Positions 463 to 9,520 of a stretch of DNA of 64,000 nt are shown here, piece after piece. The stretch's first letter is position 1, and every line of letters begins with the position of its first letter. The position numbers and the translations under genes were made by a program. The stretch is from Escherichia coli. Its GTDB lineage: Bacteria; Pseudomonadota; Gammaproteobacteria; Enterobacterales; Enterobacteriaceae. The stretch lies in NCBI RefSeq assembly GCF_003018255.1, contig NZ_CP027440.1, one strand, 5' to 3'. A model generated the notes under the pieces. It saw only the letters and a list, made by a program, of their open reading frames with translations. It was not told the DNA's origin and did no database searches.

Positions 463-1753
463 CAGGGAAAGATCACGTAACGCTGCTTTTTTGCACTAAA
501 TAATTCGCATTTTATGTTTAAAAATTGAGATATTCCTCATTACCTGAAGCTGTTTTTTATTGCGTATACATGTTCAAATACTCCTTACATAATTAAGGAG
601 AACAAAATGGAACTTAAAAAATTGATGGAACATATTTCTGTTATCCCCGATTACAGACAAGCCTGGAAAGTGGAACATAAATTGTCGGATATTCTACTGT
701 TGACTATTTGTGCCGTTATTTCTGGTGCAGAAGGCTGGGAAGATATAGAGGATTTTGGGGAAACACATCTCGATTTTTTGAAGCAATATGGTGATTTTGA
801 AAATGGTATTCCTGTTCACGATACCATTGCCAGAGTTGTATCCTGTATCAGTCCTGCAAAATTTCACGAGTGCTTTATTAACTGGATGCGTGACTGCCAT
901 TCTTCAGATGATAAAGACGTTATTGCAATTGATGGAAAAACGCTCCGGCATTCTTATGACAAGAGTCGCCGCAGGGGAGCGATTCATGTCATTAGTGCGT
1001 TCTCAACAATGCACAGTCTGGTCATCGGACAGATCAGGACGGATGAGAAATCCAATGAGATCACAGCTATCCCAGAACTTCTTAACATGATGGATATTAA
1101 AGGAAAAATCATCACAACTGATGCGATGGGTTGCCAGAAAGATATCGCAGATAAGATACAAAAACAGGGCGGTGATTATTTATTCGCTGTAAAAGGAAAT
1201 CAGGGGCGGCTTAATAAAGCCTTTGAGGAAAATTTCCCACTGAAAGAATTAAATAATCCAGAGCATGACAGTTACGCAATTAGTGAAAAAAGTCACGGCA
1301 GAGAAGAAATCCGTCTTCATATTGTTTGCGATGTCCCTGATGAACTTATTGATTTCATGTTTGAATGGAAAGGTCTGAAGAAATTATGCGTGGCAGTCTC
1401 CTTTCGGTCAATAATAGCAGAACAAAAGAAAGAGCCAGAAATGACGGTCAGATATTATATCAGTTCTGCTGATTTAACCGCAGAGAAGTTCGCCACAGCA
1501 ATCCGAAACCACTGGCACGTGGAGAATAAGCTGCACTGGCGTCTGGACGTGGTAATGAATGAAGACGACTGCAAAATAAGAAGAGGAAATGCAGCAGAAT
1601 TATTTTCAGGGATACGGCACATCGCTATTAATATTTTAACGAATGATAATGTATTCAAGGCAGGGTTAAGACGTAAGATGCGAAAAGCAGCCATGGACAG
1701 AAACTACCTGGCGTCAGTCCTTGCGGGGAGCGGGCTTTCGTAATCTTTCCCTG
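463..1753 (+). mobile_element. ISAs1-family (H-repeat type) insertion sequence, copy 1, 1291 bp
   Basis: Imperfect terminal inverted repeats CAGGGAAAGATCACG (left, from 463) and CGTAATCTTTCCCTG (right, ending 1753); single 378-aa transposase ORF; near-identical second copy at 7125..8415. Confidence 0.8.
607..1743 (+). CDS. ISAs1-family DDE transposase (H-repeat-associated protein, YdcC/YhhI-like), 378 aa
   Basis: Protein begins [11 protein letters not shown] and carries the [13 protein letters not shown] region typical of H-rpt proteins; SD AAGGAG 7 nt upstream of ATG. Confidence 0.85.
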
Positions 1754-2425: not shown

Positions 2426-5400
2426 ATGAGCGGAAAACCAGCGGCGCGTCAGGGAGATATGACTCAGTATGGCGGTCCCATTGTCCAGGGTTCGGCAGGT
2501 GTAAGAATTGGCGCGCCCACCGGCGTGGCGTGCTCGGTGTGTCCGGGCGGGATGACTTCGGGCAACCCGGTAAATCCGCTGCTGGGGGCGAAGGTGCTGC
2601 CCGGCGAGACGGACCTTGCGCTGCCCGGCCCGCTGCCGTTCATTCTCTCCCGCACCTACAGCAGCTACCGGACGAAGACGCCTGCGCCGGTGGGGATTTT
2701 TGGCCCCGGCTGGAAAGCGCCTTCTGATATCCGCTTACAGATACGCGATGATGCACTGGTACTCAACGACAACGGCGGACGGAGCATTCACTTTGAGCCG
2801 CTGCTGCCGGGTGAGGCGGTGTACAGCCGCAGCGAGTCAATGTGGCTGGTGCGCGGTGGTAAGGCAGCGCAGCCGGACGGCCACACGCTGGGGCGGCTGT
2901 GGGGGGCGCTGCCGCCGGATATCCGGTTAAGCCCGCATCTTTACCTGGCGACCAGCAGCGCACAGGGACCGTGGTGGATACTGGGGTGGTCAGAGCGGGT
3001 GCCGGGTGCTGAGGACGTACTGCCAGCGCCGCTGCCGCCGTACCGGGTGCTGACGGGGCTGGCGGACCGCTTCGGGCGGACGCTGACGTACCGGCGTGAG
3101 GCCGCCGGCGACCTGGCCGGGGAAATCACCGGCGTGACGGACGGTGCCGGGCGTGAGTTCCGTCTGGTGCTGACCACGCAGGCGCAGCGTGCGGAAGAGG
3201 CCCGCACCTCTTCGCTATCTTCTTCTGACCGTCCCCGCCCTCTCTCAGTCTCAGCGTTCCCCGACACACTGCCCGGTACCGAATACGGCCCCGACAGGGG
3301 TATCCGCCTTTCGGCGGTGTGGCTGATGCACGACCCGGCATACCCGGAGAGCCTGCCCGGTGCGCCACTGGTGCGGTACACGTATACGGAAGCCGGTGAA
3401 CTGCTGGCGGTATATGACCGCAGCAATACGCAGGTGCGCGCTTTCACGTATGACGCGCAGCACCCGGGCCGGATGGTGGCGCACCGTTACGCGGGAAGGC
3501 CGGAGATGCGCTACCGCTACGACGATGCGGGGCGGGTGGTGGAGCAGCTGAACCCGGCAGGCCTGAGTTACCGCTACCAGTATGAGCAGGACCGCATCAC
3601 CGTCACCGACAGCCTGAACCGGCGTGAGGTGCTGCATACAGAAGGCGGGGCCGGGCTGAAGCGGGTGGTGAAAAAAGAACTGGCGGACGGCAGCGTCACG
3701 CACAGCGGGTATGACGCGGCAGGAAGGCTCACGGCACAGACGGACGCGGCGGGACGGCGGACAGAGTACGGCCTGAATGTGGTGTCCGGCGATATCACGG
3801 ATATCACCACGCCGGACGGGCGGGAGACGAAATTTTACTATAACGACGGGAACCAGTTAACGGCGGTGGTGTACCCGGACGGGCTGGAGAGCAGCCGGGC
3901 ATATGATGAGCTGGACAGACTGGTATCGGAGACATCGCGCAGCGGGGAGACAGTACGCTACCGCTACGATGACGTGCACAGTGAGTTACCGGCGACGACA
4001 ACGGATGCGACGGGCAGCACCCGGCAGATGACCTGGAGCCGCTACGGGCAGTTGCTGGCCTTCACCGACTGCTCGGGCTACCAGACCCGCTATGAATACG
4101 ACCGCTTCGGCCAGATGACGGCGGTTCACCGCGAGGAAGGTATCAGCCTTTACCGCCACTATGACAACCGTGGCCGGTTAACCTCGGTGAAAGACGCACA
4201 GGGCCGTGAAACGCAGTATGAGTACAACGCCGCAGGCGACCTGACTGCCGTTATCACCCCGGACGGCAACCGGAGCGAGACACAGTACGATGCGTGGGGA
4301 AAGGCGGTCAGCACCACGCAGGGCGGGCTGACGCGCAGTATGGAGTACGATGCTGCCGGACGTGTCATCAGCCTGACCAACGAGAACGGCAGTCACAGCG
4401 ACTTCAGCTACGATGCGCTGGACCGCCTGGTACAGCAGGGCGGCTTTGACGGGCGGACGCAACGTTATCATTATGACCTGACCGGAAAACTCACGCAGAG
4501 TGAAGATGAGGGGCTTGTCATCCTCTGGTACTACGATGAATCGGACCGTATCACTCACCGCACGGTGAACGGCGAACCGGCAGAGCAGTGGCAGTATGAT
4601 GGCCACGGCTGGCTGAGAGAAATCAGCCACCTGAGCGAAGGCCACCGTGTTGCCGTCCACTATGGCTACGACGATAAGGGCCGTCTGACCGGGGAGCGCC
4701 AGACGGTGGAGAACCCGGAGACGGGGGAACTGCTGTGGCAGCATGAGACGAAACAGGCATACAACGAACAGGGGCTGGCAAACCGCGTCACGCCGGACAG
4801 CCTGCCGCCGGTGGAGTGGCTGGCCTATGGCAGCGGTTATCTGGCGGGCATGAAGCTGGGCGGGACGCCGCTGCTGGAGTACATGCGGGACAGACTGCAC
4901 CGGGAGACGGTGCGCAGCTTCGGCAGCATGGCAGGCAATACAGCCGCATATGAACTGACCAGCACTTACACCCCCGCAGGCCAGTTACAGAGCCGGCACC
5001 TGAACAGCCTGGTGTTTGATTGTGACTATAACTGGAATGACAACGGCGACCTGATGCGCATCAGCGGCCCGCGACAGACGCGGGAATACGGCTACAGCGC
5101 CACGGGCAGGCTGGAGAGCGTGCGCACCCTCGCACCGGACCTGGACATCCGCATCCCGTATGCCACCGACCCGGCGGGCAACCGGCTGCCGGACCCGGAG
5201 CTGCACCCGGACAGTACACTCACAGTGTGGCCGGATAACCGAATCACCGAAGACGCGCACTACCTGTACCGTTACGATGAATACGGCAGGCTGGCGGAGA
5301 AGACGGACCGCATCCCGGCGGGTGTGATACGGACGGACGACGAGCGGACCCACCACTACCACTACGACAGCCAGCACCGCCTGGTGTTCTATACGCGGAT

Positions 5401-6586
5401 ACAGCATGGCGAGCCACTGGTCGAGAGCCGCTACCTTTACGACCCGCTGGGCCGCCGGACGGGTAAACGGGTATGGCGGCGGGAGCGTGACCTGACGGGG
5501 TGGATGTCGCTGTCGCGTAAACCGGAGGTGACGTGGTACGGCTGGGACGGCGACCACCTGACGACGGTGCAGACCGACACCACGCGTATCCAGACGGTAT
5601 ATCAGCCGGGGAGCTTCGCGCCGCTCATCCGCATCGAAACAGACAACGGTGAGCGGGAGAAAGCGCAGCGCCGCAGCCTGGCGGAGAAGCTGCAGCAGGA
5701 AGGGAGCGAGGACGGGCACGGCGTGGTATTTCCGGCTGAACTGGTGCGGCTGCTGGACAGACTGGAGGAAGAAATCCGGGCAGACCGCGTGAGCAGTGAA
5801 AGCCGGGCGTGGCTTGCGCAGTGCGGGCTGACGGTGGAGCAACTGGAAAAACAGGTGGAGCCGGAATACACACCGGCGCGAAAAGTTCATCTTTACCACT
5901 GCGACCACCGGGGACTGCCGCTGGCGCTTATCAGCGAAGACGGCAATACGGTGTGGAGCGCGGAGTATGATGAATGGGGAAACCTGCTTAATGAGGAGAA
6001 CCCGCATCATGTGTATCAGTCATACCGTCTGCCGGGGCAGCAGCATGATGAGGAGTCGGGGCTGTACTACAACCGGAACCGGTACTACGATCCGTTGCAG
6101 GGGCGGTATATCATCCAGGACCCGATAGGGCTGGCGGGGGGAATAAACCCGTACAGTTATGTTATGAACAATCCTGTGCAATGGATTGATCCATTGGGAT
6201 TAGCTCATACTTCAGGAAAATGGAAGGACTGTGGTAAAGGTTGTCGAATCCGAATAGATGGCGATGCTGTTGGTGACGGAAGACATTTGCATTGGGAGTG
6301 TAAAAATGGGAGTGGTGTAATGGGGGAATTTGGAGGTATGTCCCATGGTGAGGATTACTCATCAGCACCAAATAGCATTAAGAAATGTGCAAAAAAATAT
6401 GGTTTCGAGCCAGAACCAAGTAAAGATCTGTCATGCAAAACCTCCGGGCTATCAACTACTGATGCGGCTCTTGCAACTGGTGCTACAATTGGCGCAGGGT
6501 ATGTTATATATAGAGTGATTCGATTTATACCTTCACTTGCACCACCTCTTTGGTGGTCAATACCTGCAAACGTTGTTACTCCATGA
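2426..6586 (+). CDS. rhsE: Rhs family polymorphic toxin, full length (1386 aa): N-terminal domain, YD-repeat shell, PxxxxDPxGL motifs, divergent C-terminal tip
   Basis: N-terminus [31 protein letters not shown] and many YD repeats; DPIGLAGG at ~6120-6140 and WIDPLGL at ~6184-6204; GC-rich core then AT-rich ~125-aa tip; SD GAAGAAGGA upstream. Symbol is by position only. Confidence 0.85.
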
Positions 6587-6957
6587 TTAAAACGGATAAT
6601 GGAGATTATATAATGAGCGATTTTGACATTGTGAGTTCAATTGACTGGCATGATGGGGTTTTGTTAGAAGTAAAAACGACATTCAAAGAATCTCATTTTA
6701 ACATGACGTTATTTATTGACATTTATAAAAATGAGAACATTAGGGAAAAAATGATAGTTGAATTTTCTGATGTAGATGATTTAGTGTTCGCTATGGATTC
6801 TGCTGAGTTAATCGATAATCACAAGTCAGGTAATATAAGTAATGGGTATGTAAAGAAATTAAAAAACAAAAGGATATATAAATTTTTTCTTTATTTTTCT
6901 GATGGCTTATTAAGCATGACATTTAAAAATTTACAATTAATAAAACCATTAGAGTAA
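6583..6957 (+). CDS. putative cognate Rhs immunity protein (RhsI-like, ~124 aa)
   Basis: ATG overlaps the rhs TGA stop (ATGA) around 6583-6586; AT-rich like the toxin tip; no hydrophobic segment. Start could instead be 6550 or 6613. Confidence 0.6.
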
Positions 6958-6995
6958 CCAAATAAAAGGACTGGAGGAATCAGGGGAAGATCATT

Positions 6996-7021
6996 AAAGT
7001 TGTGATTATCATCACAACTTT
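6996..7021. repeat. perfect 11-bp inverted repeat AAAGTTGTGAT-TATC-ATCACAACTTT
   Basis: Read directly; lies ~40 bp after the immunity stop; terminator-like or protein-binding palindrome. Confidence 0.5.
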
Positions 7022-7124
7022 AATCTTGGTTTCACCTTGTTGATTTGATTAAAATTTAATCGCCAAATAATTAAATATATTAGAAAAGGACGTCTGGTGA
7101 ACATTCAAAGTCTTCTTGAGCATA

Positions 7125-8415
7125 CAGGGAAAGATCATCAGAAGTACACTTTTTGTACTAAATAATTCGCATTTTATGTTTAAAAATTGAGATATTCCTC
7201 ATTACCTAAAGCTGTTTTTTATTGCTTATACATGATCAAATACTCCTTACATAATTAAGGAGAACAAAATGGAACTTAAAAAATTGATGGGACATATTTC
7301 TATTATCCCCGATTACAGACAAACCTGGAAAGTGGAACATAAATTGTCAGATATTCTACTGTTGATTATTAGTGCCGTTATTTCTGGTGCAGAAGGCTGG
7401 GAAGATATAGAGGATTTTGGGGAAACACATCTCGATTTTTTAAAGCAATATGGTGATTTTAAAAATGGTATTCCTGTTCACGATACCATTGCCAGAGTTG
7501 TATCCTGTATCAGTCCTGCAAAATTTCACGAGTGCTTTATTAACTGGATGCGTGACTGCCATTCTTCAGATGATAAAGACGTCATTGCAATTGATGGAAA
7601 AACGCTCCGGCATTCTTATGACAAGAGTCGTCGCAGGGGAGCGATTCATGTCATTAGTGCATTCTCAACAATGCACAGTCTGGTCATCGGACAGATCAGG
7701 ACGGATGAGAAATCTAATGAGATTACAGCTATCCCTGAACTTCTTAACATGCTGGACATTAAAGGAAAAATTATCACAACTGATGCGATGGGTTGCCAGA
7801 AAGATATTGCAGAGAAGATACAAAAACAGGGAGGTGATTATTTATTCTCTGTAAAAGGAAACCCGGGGCGGCTGAATAAAGCTTTTGAGGAAAAATTTCC
7901 ACTGAAAGAATTAAATAATCCAGAGCATGACAGTTACGCAATTAGTGAAAAGAGTCACGGCAGAGAAGAAATCCGTCTTCACATTGTTTGCGATGTCCCT
8001 GATGAACTTATTGATTTCACGTTTGAATGGAAAGGTCTGAAGAAATTATGCGTGGCAGTCTCCTTTCGGTCAATAATAGCAGAACAAAAGAAAGAGCCAG
8101 AAATGACGGTCAGATATTATATCAGTTCTGCTGATTTAACCGCAGAGATGTTCGCCACAGCAATCCGAAACCACTGGCACGTGGAGAATAAGCTGCACTG
8201 GCGTCTGGACGTGGTAATGAATGAAGACGACTGCAAAATAAGAAGAGGAAACGCCGCAGAATTATTTTCAGGGATACGGCACATCGCTATTAATATTTTA
8301 ACGAATGATAAGGTATTCAAGGCAGGGTTAAGACGTAAGATGCGAAAAGCAGCCATGGACAAAAACTATCTGGCGTCAGTCCTTGCGGGGAGCGGGCTTT
8401 CGTAATCTTTCCCTG
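7125..8415 (+). mobile_element. ISAs1-family (H-repeat type) insertion sequence, copy 2, 1291 bp, same orientation as copy 1
   Basis: Same terminal repeats (CAGGGAAAGATCA ... CGTAATCTTTCCCTG) and same length as copy 1; internal sequence near-identical with scattered substitutions. Confidence 0.8.
7269..8405 (+). CDS. ISAs1-family DDE transposase (H-repeat-associated protein), 378 aa, copy 2
   Basis: Same length and register as 607..1743 with several substitutions (e.g. [15 protein letters not shown] vs [15 protein letters not shown]). Confidence 0.85.
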
Positions 8416-8419
8416 TATT

Positions 8420-8707
8420 GTGAAATCATCAAGAGTACATATAGATCATGATAAAGATATTTTTGATGGCCTTGACAAAATCTTGGCTTTTTCCGATAAA
8501 AATAAGCATGAGTATTTTTTATATATAAAGGCATATTGGCTCAGTTTATACTTTTGTGAAATTTCTCAGAAAGTGAGAGAAAGAGATAAGTTGTCATTTT
8601 ATTATGATGAATTTTCTGTCCGATTTCCTAATGTTGTCCTATATCCGACATACTTCCAATTGCATGGTTTAGCATCTGAAAAGTCATTGTTAATTCGAGA
8701 CGCTTGA
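8420..8707 (+). pseudogene. AT-rich ORF abutting the IS right end; possible orphan Rhs immunity remnant
   Basis: 95-aa ORF begins 5 bp after the IS end; composition resembles the immunity gene; no convincing native start context. Confidence 0.3.
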
Positions 8708-8986
8708 TTGTCCACTATATCAAAATAGTCATGCCCCGGAATTTTCTCACATTAGTCCATAAGGGATTCAATTTTTGTAATTGCACCCTGAAAAAACCGC
8801 AAAAGTGCTTTGTCGTGTCCTGTCGCAATGAAGTCTGGTGTTAATGTTATACTTTAATTGATATTTAAAGAGATGGCTTCTTTGCTTATATAAATACCCA
8901 TCTATTCTTTCTCAAAAATATTGGCTCAGATTAACCATGTTCCACGCAAACAATTTTCAAACATTCATCAATAGATAAGGAATTCC

Positions 8987-9454
8987 ATGATTATACGACC
9001 AGTCAAACCTTCAGATGTTGAACCATTACTGGATATGCTGCTTGCCAGTGGACAATTTAATCAAGATGGCCTTCATCATGTACAAAAAACACTAACACAT
9101 TATTTCTCAGGTCAATCTGCCGATTTATGGTTTAGTGCAGAACACTTAGGACTGGCAGGGATTGCCTATTGCGCTCCTGAAGTGATGACAAATGATGTCT
9201 GGAATTTATTAATGCACTGGATCAGTCCTTCCCATCAGCGCCAGGGAGTGGGACATCTGCTGATTAACGAAATAGAAAAGGAGCTCACAATTAAACAGGC
9301 AAGACTACTTTTAGTAGAGACCTCCAGCTATGTCGATTTTAGTGCCGCCCGCGCATTTTATACATAACAGGGCTTTATCAATGAAGCTATAATACGCAAT
9401 TACTATGATGTTGGTGAGGATAAATTAATCTTCACTAAAAATATGCAATCGTGA
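8987..9454 (+). pseudogene. GNAT-family N-acetyltransferase with an in-frame TAA (9365-9367); reading frame continues 28 codons to TGA at 9452-9454
   Basis: SD AAGG 7 nt upstream; acetyl-CoA motif QRQGVGH; the stop sits where GNAT motif B expects a lysine (AFYT-stop-QGF). Confidence 0.65.
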
Positions 9455-9520
9455 GATAAAATATGCTTTTAACTCATATTGAAACATTGCTTAAGCAACT
9501 TGGTTGCTGCATATGATTCT

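Follow-up and report, generated by a model that had tools for sequence, protein, structure and literature searches.

A putative truncated ISEc26-like left end behind a presumed Rhs immunity gene in Escherichia coli

Layout of the RhsE-type locus

The window, as we call the whole 64-kb stretch of Escherichia coli DNA that was analysed, contains an RhsE-type T6SS locus. A vgrG remnant split by H-rpt copy 1 is followed there by the Rhs gene, a 114-aa ORF, a 144-bp segment that we refer to as the stub, and H-rpt copy 2; further to the right lie a 95-aa ORF and a GNAT gene, then yddH and nhoA (Table 1). The 114-aa ORF belongs to no Pfam family, and RefSeq relatives list it as a hypothetical protein; its immunity role is presumed from its position after the Rhs/Tox-WTIP gene. 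The stop codon of this ORF lies 23 nt before the left terminal repeat (IRL) of the stub and 35 nt before a hairpin, the first base of which is the last base of the 13-bp repeat core. In the RefSeq relatives nothing is annotated under these 144 bp.

Table 1. Coordinates of the features in and around the stub (positions in the window)
Feature	Position	Strand	Remarks
H-rpt copy 1, ISAs1 family, 1291 bp	463-1753	+	Context
Rhs protein, 1386 aa, Tox-WTIP tip	2426-6586		Upstream of the 114-aa ORF
Presumed immunity gene, 114-aa ORF	6613-6957	+	Position directly after the Rhs toxin gene
Stub, putative truncated ISEc26-like left end	6981-7124	+	Gapless homology; once per genome
IRL core CAGGGGAAGATCA	6981-6993	+	Position and sequence class of ISAs1 IRLs; GATC at 6989-6992
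Subterminal hairpin, 14-nt arms ATTAAAGTTGTGAT / ATCACAACTTTAAT, loop TATC	6993-7024	.	Arms at 6993-7006 and 7011-7024
Putative remnant of transposase 5' UTR, Shine-Dalgarno AAGGA at 7086-7090	7025-7096	+	AAAAGGACG block
First 9 transposase codons (GTG; VNIQSLLEH) plus 1 nt	7097-7124	+	Frame broken off at H-rpt copy 2
H-rpt copy 2, ISAs1 family, 1291 bp	7125-8415	+	Pfam DDE_Tnp_1_assoc + DDE_Tnp_1; IRL 7125-7137, transposase 7269-8405, IRR 8403-8415

The two H-rpt copies are 96.3% identical, and an association of H-rpt with Rhs C-terminal tips was reportedly described by Zhao in 1993 and Hill in 1994. Just inside the IRL, at nt 14-25, the copies are nearly unrelated (CGTAACGCTGC vs TCAGAAGTACAC; 476-495 vs 7138-7157), and this same stretch of H-rpt is also the insertion spot of a group II intron and the end of the similarity to ISEc26. 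H-rpt copy 1 lies between a vgrG-like start (ATG 447, MSTGL), apparently the first five vgrG codons, and a Gp5_trimer_C region at 1757-2356 (the whole spanning 447-2359); most of vgrG was apparently deleted beside this copy, and no target-site duplication is visible there. Each ISAs1-type left repeat holds a Dam site, GATC (6989-6992, 471-474 and 7133-7136), whereas the right repeats read GATTA (H-rpt) or GAGCA (ISEc26), an asymmetry that recalls IS ends regulated by Dam.

Between H-rpt copy 2 and yddH (8416-9520), the 95-aa ORF has no Pfam family and the GNAT acetyltransferase has 126 aa; pptA, which holds that position in K-12, ATCC 8739, and WCHEC035148, is absent, and strain N3 shares parts of this DNA with the window and lacks 8830-9292. 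An imperfect 22-nt tandem direct repeat at 6939-6982 (AATAAAACCATTAGAGTAACCA / AATAAAAGGACTGGAGGAATCA, 73%), which runs over the immunity-gene stop codon up to the IRL, is probably due to chance.

Homology of the stub to ISEc26-type left ends

An earlier note on this DNA had singled out the 13-mer CAGGGGAAGATCA at 6981-6993 as a solo motif, similar to the ISAs1 terminal repeat and not followed by IS sequence. The 13-mer is indeed there, on the plus strand, and is a genuine family terminal repeat, of the position and sequence class of the IRLs of H-rpt (463 and 7125), ISEc26, K-12 yncI, ISKpn31, and ISAeme1. Terminal inverted repeats of the ISAs1 family begin with CAGGG and are 14-22 bp long (ISfinder). 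At up to two mismatches the 13-mer has seven matches in the window, vs 1.09 expected, four of which are the true ends of both H-rpt copies, and the motif is not common apart from IS ends. The description of the motif as solo, with no IS sequence behind it, did not hold: the 13-mer heads 144 nt of homology to a second, divergent ISAs1-family element, and all that is missing is H-rpt, to which the match is confined to the first 14 nt, the 131 nt after the 13-mer being of ISEc26 type.

Over its 144 bp the stub aligns without gaps to a copy in Superficieibacter electus (87.5% identity, E = 6e-50), and over 140 bp it is 70.7% identical to the full-length ISEc26 of O157; K-12 yncI, O157 ISEc26, the SCU-301 copy, and the S. 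electus copy can all be aligned to it column for column. A 72%-identical relative carries the RefSeq label "ISAs1-like element ISEc26 family transposase". The anatomy is shared as well, with AAAAGGACG invariant in 7/7 aligned left ends, 6 nt 5' of the start codon, and with a spacing of 89-90 nt from the 13-mer to AAAAGGACG in every copy. The segment ends in GTG AAC ATT CAA AGT CTT CTT GAG CAT A, which encodes VNIQSLLEH and is comparable to the transposase N-termini of ISEc26 (VSIQSLLDYISVIPD, VSIQSLLDY) and of the S. electus copy (VNIQSLLDHISIIPD), and the frame breaks off at 7124/7125, where the IRL of H-rpt copy 2 begins.

Terminal repeat and internal homology thus both place the stub in the ISAs1 family. 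The O157 ISEc26 transposase has 390 aa and both the DDE_Tnp_1_assoc and DDE_Tnp_1 domains; in the stub only nine codons are left, a complete DDE transposase gene (PF13808 + PF01609) being absent, and tblastn of the window found no ISEc26-type coding remnant besides the two H-rpt copies. The ISEc26 IRL and IRR match at 17/18 positions, and a motif search of the window gave no further repeat; the stub ends at the H-rpt IRL, with neither a matching right repeat nor a target-site duplication. Because the transposase gene and the right end are missing, the stub is a remnant and not an intact family member, and for the same reason it is immobile. Neither can it be a MITE, since it has no right repeat, is present in one copy per genome, and contains the start of a transposase ORF.

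We consider it highly probable (roughly 85%) that 6981-7124 is the decayed, truncated left end of an older ISEc26-like IS of the ISAs1 family, as judged from these comparisons. The 13-mer and the palindrome that follows it are, on this reading, an ordinary mobile-element remnant and no new kind of signal, and the segment would best be annotated as the truncated left end of an ISAs1-family (ISEc26-like) element, rather than as an IS target site or a regulatory signal belonging to the immunity gene.

The arrangement has a close counterpart in K-12, where ydcD, the RhsE immunity gene, is followed by CAGGGCAAGATCA, a 14-bp-stem hairpin, about 60 nt, AAAAGGACG, and GTG AGT ATT CAA AGT TTG CTT, the start of yncI; yncI is a divergent ISAs1-family pseudogene, and the H-rpt gene ydcC comes after it. 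With ISEc26 and yncI the stub shares the terminal repeat class CAGGGNAAGATCA, the hairpin with a 14-bp stem at nt 13-44, the AAAAGGACG spacing of 90-91 nt, a GTG or ATG start with a V/M-x-IQSLL N-terminus, and a site in the same orientation behind a T6SS/Rhs immunity gene and before H-rpt. It differs from ISEc26 in three compensated stem positions and in the loop, and since it is only about 71% identical to ISEc26 at the nucleotide level, with its closest copy in S. electus (87.5%), it forms a separate sub-lineage. The surviving length also differs, 144 bp in the stub vs ~1.2 kb in K-12 yncI vs the full element in O157.

H-rpt (ydcC, ybfD, and the two window copies) is an ISAs1-family element with transposases 58% identical and the same first 13-14 nt, but unlike the stub it has no comparable hairpin, and its similarity ends at nt 14. 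It has long been associated with Rhs C-terminal tips (PMC3032704).

No intact element of the stub's subtype was found: a contig pattern scan gave the S. electus copy, itself truncated after 84 codons, together with K-12-type copies in contaminated MAGs and 13 chance matches, and a search of plasmids gave no copy. The lack of an intact copy with its right end counts against the reading as an ISEc26-like left end.

Conservation and possible roles of the subterminal hairpin

The perfect inverted repeat AAAGTTGTGAT-TATC-ATCACAACTTT that had been described at 6996-7021 is present and unique in the window, but its arms are 14 nt long and not 11. Folded as RNA, the window hairpin has an energy of -14.8 kcal/mol (z = -5.8 vs shuffles), and the folding energies obtained for the hairpin span -14.8 to -18 kcal/mol, with z about -6. 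All 14 pairs are perfect in both the window type and O157 ISEc26, and the three positions at which these two stems differ are all compensated (T-A/G-C, G-C/A-T, and T-A/C-G). The K-12 hairpin has one G·U pair, that of S. electus two G·U pairs and one mismatch, and that of SCU-301 two unpaired positions (C·A inner, A·A outermost); the copy in ECNB21 is badly decayed and has lost its pairing. Across the seven left ends 90.8% of cells are paired, vs 31-49% when the partner columns are slid, and the observed covariation score was reached by 0 of 500 shuffles. These figures, which come from seven related sequences, several of them pseudogenes, are suggestive of maintained pairing; a symmetric protein site or palindrome-correcting mutation could yield the same compensatory pattern.

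Within the set of elements examined, the hairpin is confined to the ISEc26 clade. H-rpt does not have it (energies of -4.9 and -2.4 kcal/mol; z-scores of -1.5 and +1.1), and neither do ISKpn31, ISAeme1, and further members of the ISAs1 family, in which a CAGGGNNAGAT-type terminus is the only shared part. We therefore rejected it as an ISAs1-wide feature, given its absence from H-rpt, ISKpn31, ISAeme1, and elements of the Aeromonas, Photobacterium, and Klebsiella grimontii types. It is also absent at the ISEc26 right end, for which reason a symmetric transposase site at both ends was dropped. Rfam 15 has no family for the hairpin, a search of 6500-7400 giving only a chance miRNA match (E = 0.92).

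A hairpin at the left end only argues against symmetric transposase binding and favours a role linked to expression. We tentatively propose, at somewhat less than even odds, that the hairpin acts as an RNA structure in transcripts from the upstream gene, where it would terminate weakly, be a site of processing, or stabilise the 3' end. In an intact IS it would form in read-in transcripts and limit or process read-through before the transposase gene, and at the window locus it would probably mark or stabilise the 3' end of the rhs-immunity mRNA. It resembles read-through-blocking or 5'-UTR hairpins and Rho-independent terminators in being a stable stem-loop between outside DNA and a transposase gene, and differs from them in its A/T-rich stem, in the lack of a clean U-tract, and in that the ribosome-binding site 60 nt downstream is not sequestered. 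A lenient terminator scan flags it (14 pairs, 3 of them G-C; tail CTTGGTTTCA), with the weak features of an A/U-rich stem (3 G-C/14) and a poor T-run; the tail of the O157 homologue would fail the scan criteria, judged by reading those criteria alone. YncO is translated on the opposite strand through the homologous hairpin in K-12, which indicates that the hairpin is no strong block in that direction. The left-end hairpin of the ISEc26 clade may thus be a small lead on how ISAs1 transposase expression is shielded from upstream operons.

The DNA sequence of the palindrome also invites a reading as a site for CRP-cAMP or another dimeric regulator that would control the transposase or a neighbouring promoter. 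TGTGA-N6-TCACA is the CRP core consensus, and the perfect match at 7001-7016 is the sole one in 64 kb (0.10 expected), lies at the left end specifically, the usual place of IS promoters, and is kept as TGTGA...TCACG in K-12. O157 ISEc26, however, has CGTGA...TCACG, and no sigma-70-like promoter was found by scanning the plus strand between the site and the GTG start. Further, the 22-bp CRP footprint does not include the compensated pair 6995/7022, a sign of selection on pairing and not on half-sites. We regard regulation through such a site as unlikely.

Four unrelated T6SS/Rhs immunity genes each have an ISEc26-type left end immediately behind them, always in one orientation: the gene in the window, K-12 ydcD, that of the M23-peptidase effector cassette in ECNB21-M121, and Superficieibacter Tli3. 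In S. electus (L018, 2376-5003), the closest relative of the stub comes right behind the T6SS effector-immunity pair Tle3/Tli3, with an Rhs-repeat fragment and a SUKH immunity gene downstream of it; left ends of this type are therefore associated with T6SS immunity genes outside Escherichia as well. Given these four contexts and the pairing kept through compensatory changes, we have entertained the speculative and rather improbable view that the left end is a selected boundary of effector-immunity cassettes or a recombination anchor, or that stacks of such stubs arise by ISAs1 self-targeting. Were it right, the left end might uncouple transposase and toxin operon, as an insulator or a 3'-end element, or it might be a shared right-hand anchor for recombination in cassette exchange, and the stacks might reflect targeting of resident ISAs1 left ends by elements of the family.

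Two observations concern transcription and translation outward across the IS end. K-12 YncO (L004, 5320-5505; 61 aa), which has been detected experimentally, has its GTG start inside the homologous hairpin and reads outward over the IS end into the ydcD antisense strand; a YncO-like minus-strand ORF was sought in the window (6920-7015) and rejected, as the frame closes after 11 codons. On the minus strand at 7074-7101, a promoter-like arrangement (TTCACC, 16 nt, TATATT) overlaps the start codon of the remnant and points outward through the hairpin, and may be the source of an antisense or outward transcript such as YncO would need in K-12.

Junction types in the population and the origin of the truncation

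About 360 of 5426 complete E. coli genomes contain the stub, each in a single, chromosomal copy; in every locus examined it occupies the RhsE-type position. Its right-hand junctions fall into three types in 361 genomes (319, 39, and 3), each of which stops at an intact H-rpt IRL. In the most frequent type, a 154-bp stub is followed by a 92-bp fragment and then the H-rpt IRL; the fragment (L003, 3565-3656), which had no match in the compared loci before its assignment, starts with GTAAGCG and is the left end of an IS66-family element up to the first tnpA codons. The second type has a stub of 179 bp with 21 codons (VNIQSLLEHIPIILDLNEPNG), and in strain N3 we find 12 more homologous codons than in the window stub before the same H-rpt IRL. 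The window-type stub of 144 bp occurs in three genomes: DETEC-S792, JNE23-011, and JNE112863. No junction type can be derived from another through insertion alone, and the DNA to the right of H-rpt varies between strains.

A comparison with empty sites, as the earlier note had envisaged, finds no such site: 403/403 genomes with the immunity gene carry the 13-mer. Of these, 357 also have the hairpin, and ~45 genomes of the ATCC 8739 type are without it while still carrying the immunity gene and CAGGGGAAGATCA. In the latter type, CAGGGGAAGATCA is followed by CG, a group II intron (Rfam RF01999, RF00029), and the H-rpt body from TAGAAGTACAC onward, and the G at position 6 of the 13-mer suggests a deletion between the 13-mers of the stub and of H-rpt.

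If the stub is the left end of an older IS, an ISEc26-like element would formerly have stood close behind the Rhs immunity gene, both facing the same way, and the 13-mer would be the IRL core at which the DDE transposase of that element recognized and cleaved it. The ancestor was likely K-12-like, with the immunity gene, an ISEc26-like IS, and H-rpt in this order, and the right part of the older IS would have been lost through an IS-associated deletion bounded on the right by H-rpt copy 2, the left terminus of which (7125) is intact. This loss may have arisen by intramolecular transposition from the H-rpt end (adjacent deletion), or H-rpt may have inserted into the older IS and then recombined with a downstream H-rpt copy. 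Across the population, independent deletions bounded by the H-rpt left terminus would have removed differing amounts of the older IS, and in one lineage the deletion would also have taken part of an IS66 element inserted in it. A deletion extending leftward beyond the IS would have disrupted the immunity gene, a possible reason for the confinement of the endpoints to the IS. H-rpt copy 1, beside which most of vgrG has apparently been lost, behaves in a similar way. The three truncation classes offer comparative evidence that H-rpt has repeatedly remodelled the RhsE region.

Adjacent deletions and deletion by recombination between copies are classical for IS1, IS10, and IS903. The junctions described here are like these in having one endpoint at an intact IS terminus and the other endpoint variable. 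They are unlike them in that we infer the H-rpt events, and with them the deletion mechanism, from comparison; since H-rpt transposition has not been observed experimentally (PMC3032704), its making adjacent deletions is no more than a model.

The earlier note had suggested that the motif might be the footprint of an earlier insertion or recombination, or a preferred target site. It does appear to be the trace of an earlier insertion, but not an excision footprint of H-rpt, and there is neither need nor evidence for a preferred target site, as no consensus is seen in the flanks upstream of 13 IRLs. We judge it very unlikely that the 13-mer serves H-rpt as a target or decoy, or is an excision footprint or duplicated end of H-rpt copy 2. 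The 13-mer is one base off the H-rpt IRL and lies 144 bp upstream of it, there is weak extra similarity in the 10 nt before the 13-mer and before the H-rpt IRL, the 13-mer is joined to the H-rpt body via a group II intron in the ~45 ATCC 8739-type genomes, and EC14 has a bare copy of the 13-bp IRL before another IRL. Yet the 131 nt after the 13-mer are of ISEc26 and not of H-rpt type, the G at position 6 is found in no canonical H-rpt IRL, no consensus emerges upstream of the 13 IRLs, and the ATCC 8739 layout is explained more simply by a deletion between near-identical 13-mers. A footprint or target-site duplication of H-rpt (at most 10 bp, with no IS homology) was rejected, as the motif opens a stretch of 144 bp homologous to another IS, and the idea of a solo repeat or H-rpt footprint was dropped on the comparison with K-12 and the identity figures.

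The palindrome, for its part, is no independent feature of the immunity-gene 3' end. It is a conserved subterminal part of the IS that moves with it into unrelated contexts, among them K-12 ydcD, S. electus Tli3, and another IS fragment in SCU-301; it may still be a terminator or a protein-binding site, as the earlier note had suggested. That the hairpin is instead an intrinsic terminator of the rhs-immunity cassette itself, beside an IS end by accident, accords with its position 35 nt past the stop codon, with its being flagged as terminator-like, and with the presence of the 13-mer in 403/403 genomes with the immunity gene and of the hairpin in 357. The comparative data already contradict this account, since a homologous hairpin at the same distance from the IRL stands behind K-12 ydcD, S. 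electus Tli3, and a transposase fragment in SCU-301, and since the ATCC 8739 types keep the immunity gene and the 13-mer with the hairpin gone; we find it scarcely credible. A chance resemblance without biological meaning, to which short motifs in an AT-rich region might lend themselves, is ruled out for practical purposes by 144 bp of gapless 87.5% homology at E = 6e-50, a perfect 14-bp inverted repeat, and the presence of the stub in ~360 genomes.

Group II intron sequences recur near H-rpt left ends. In ATCC 8739 (L001, 3437-5323), a group II intron with ltrA lies ~15 nt inside the left end of H-rpt, and 2534 of 5426 E. coli genomes have the 5' part of the intron attached to an H-rpt IRL. 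AR_0162 (L035, 2519-2677) and EC14 (L036, 2517-2709) have only a 5' fragment of the intron, ~160-195 nt long, which is cut by another H-rpt IRL. The possibility that 6994-7124 is an intron leftover was rejected, as the intron sequence is unrelated and the Rfam domains are placed elsewhere.

At several Rhs loci, ISAs1 left-end stubs are stacked, each of them cut exactly by the next IRL. In SCU-301 (L005, 2360-3100) an ISAs1 fragment, an ISEc26 fragment, and H-rpt follow one another; in AR_0162 (L035, 2425-2690) a decayed H-rpt stub precedes an IRL with an intron 5' fragment and then H-rpt; and in EC14 (L036, 2488-2722) a bare 13-bp IRL stands directly before an IRL with an intron fragment, again followed by H-rpt. 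Such stacks may reflect self-targeting or repeated deletions bounded by left ends.
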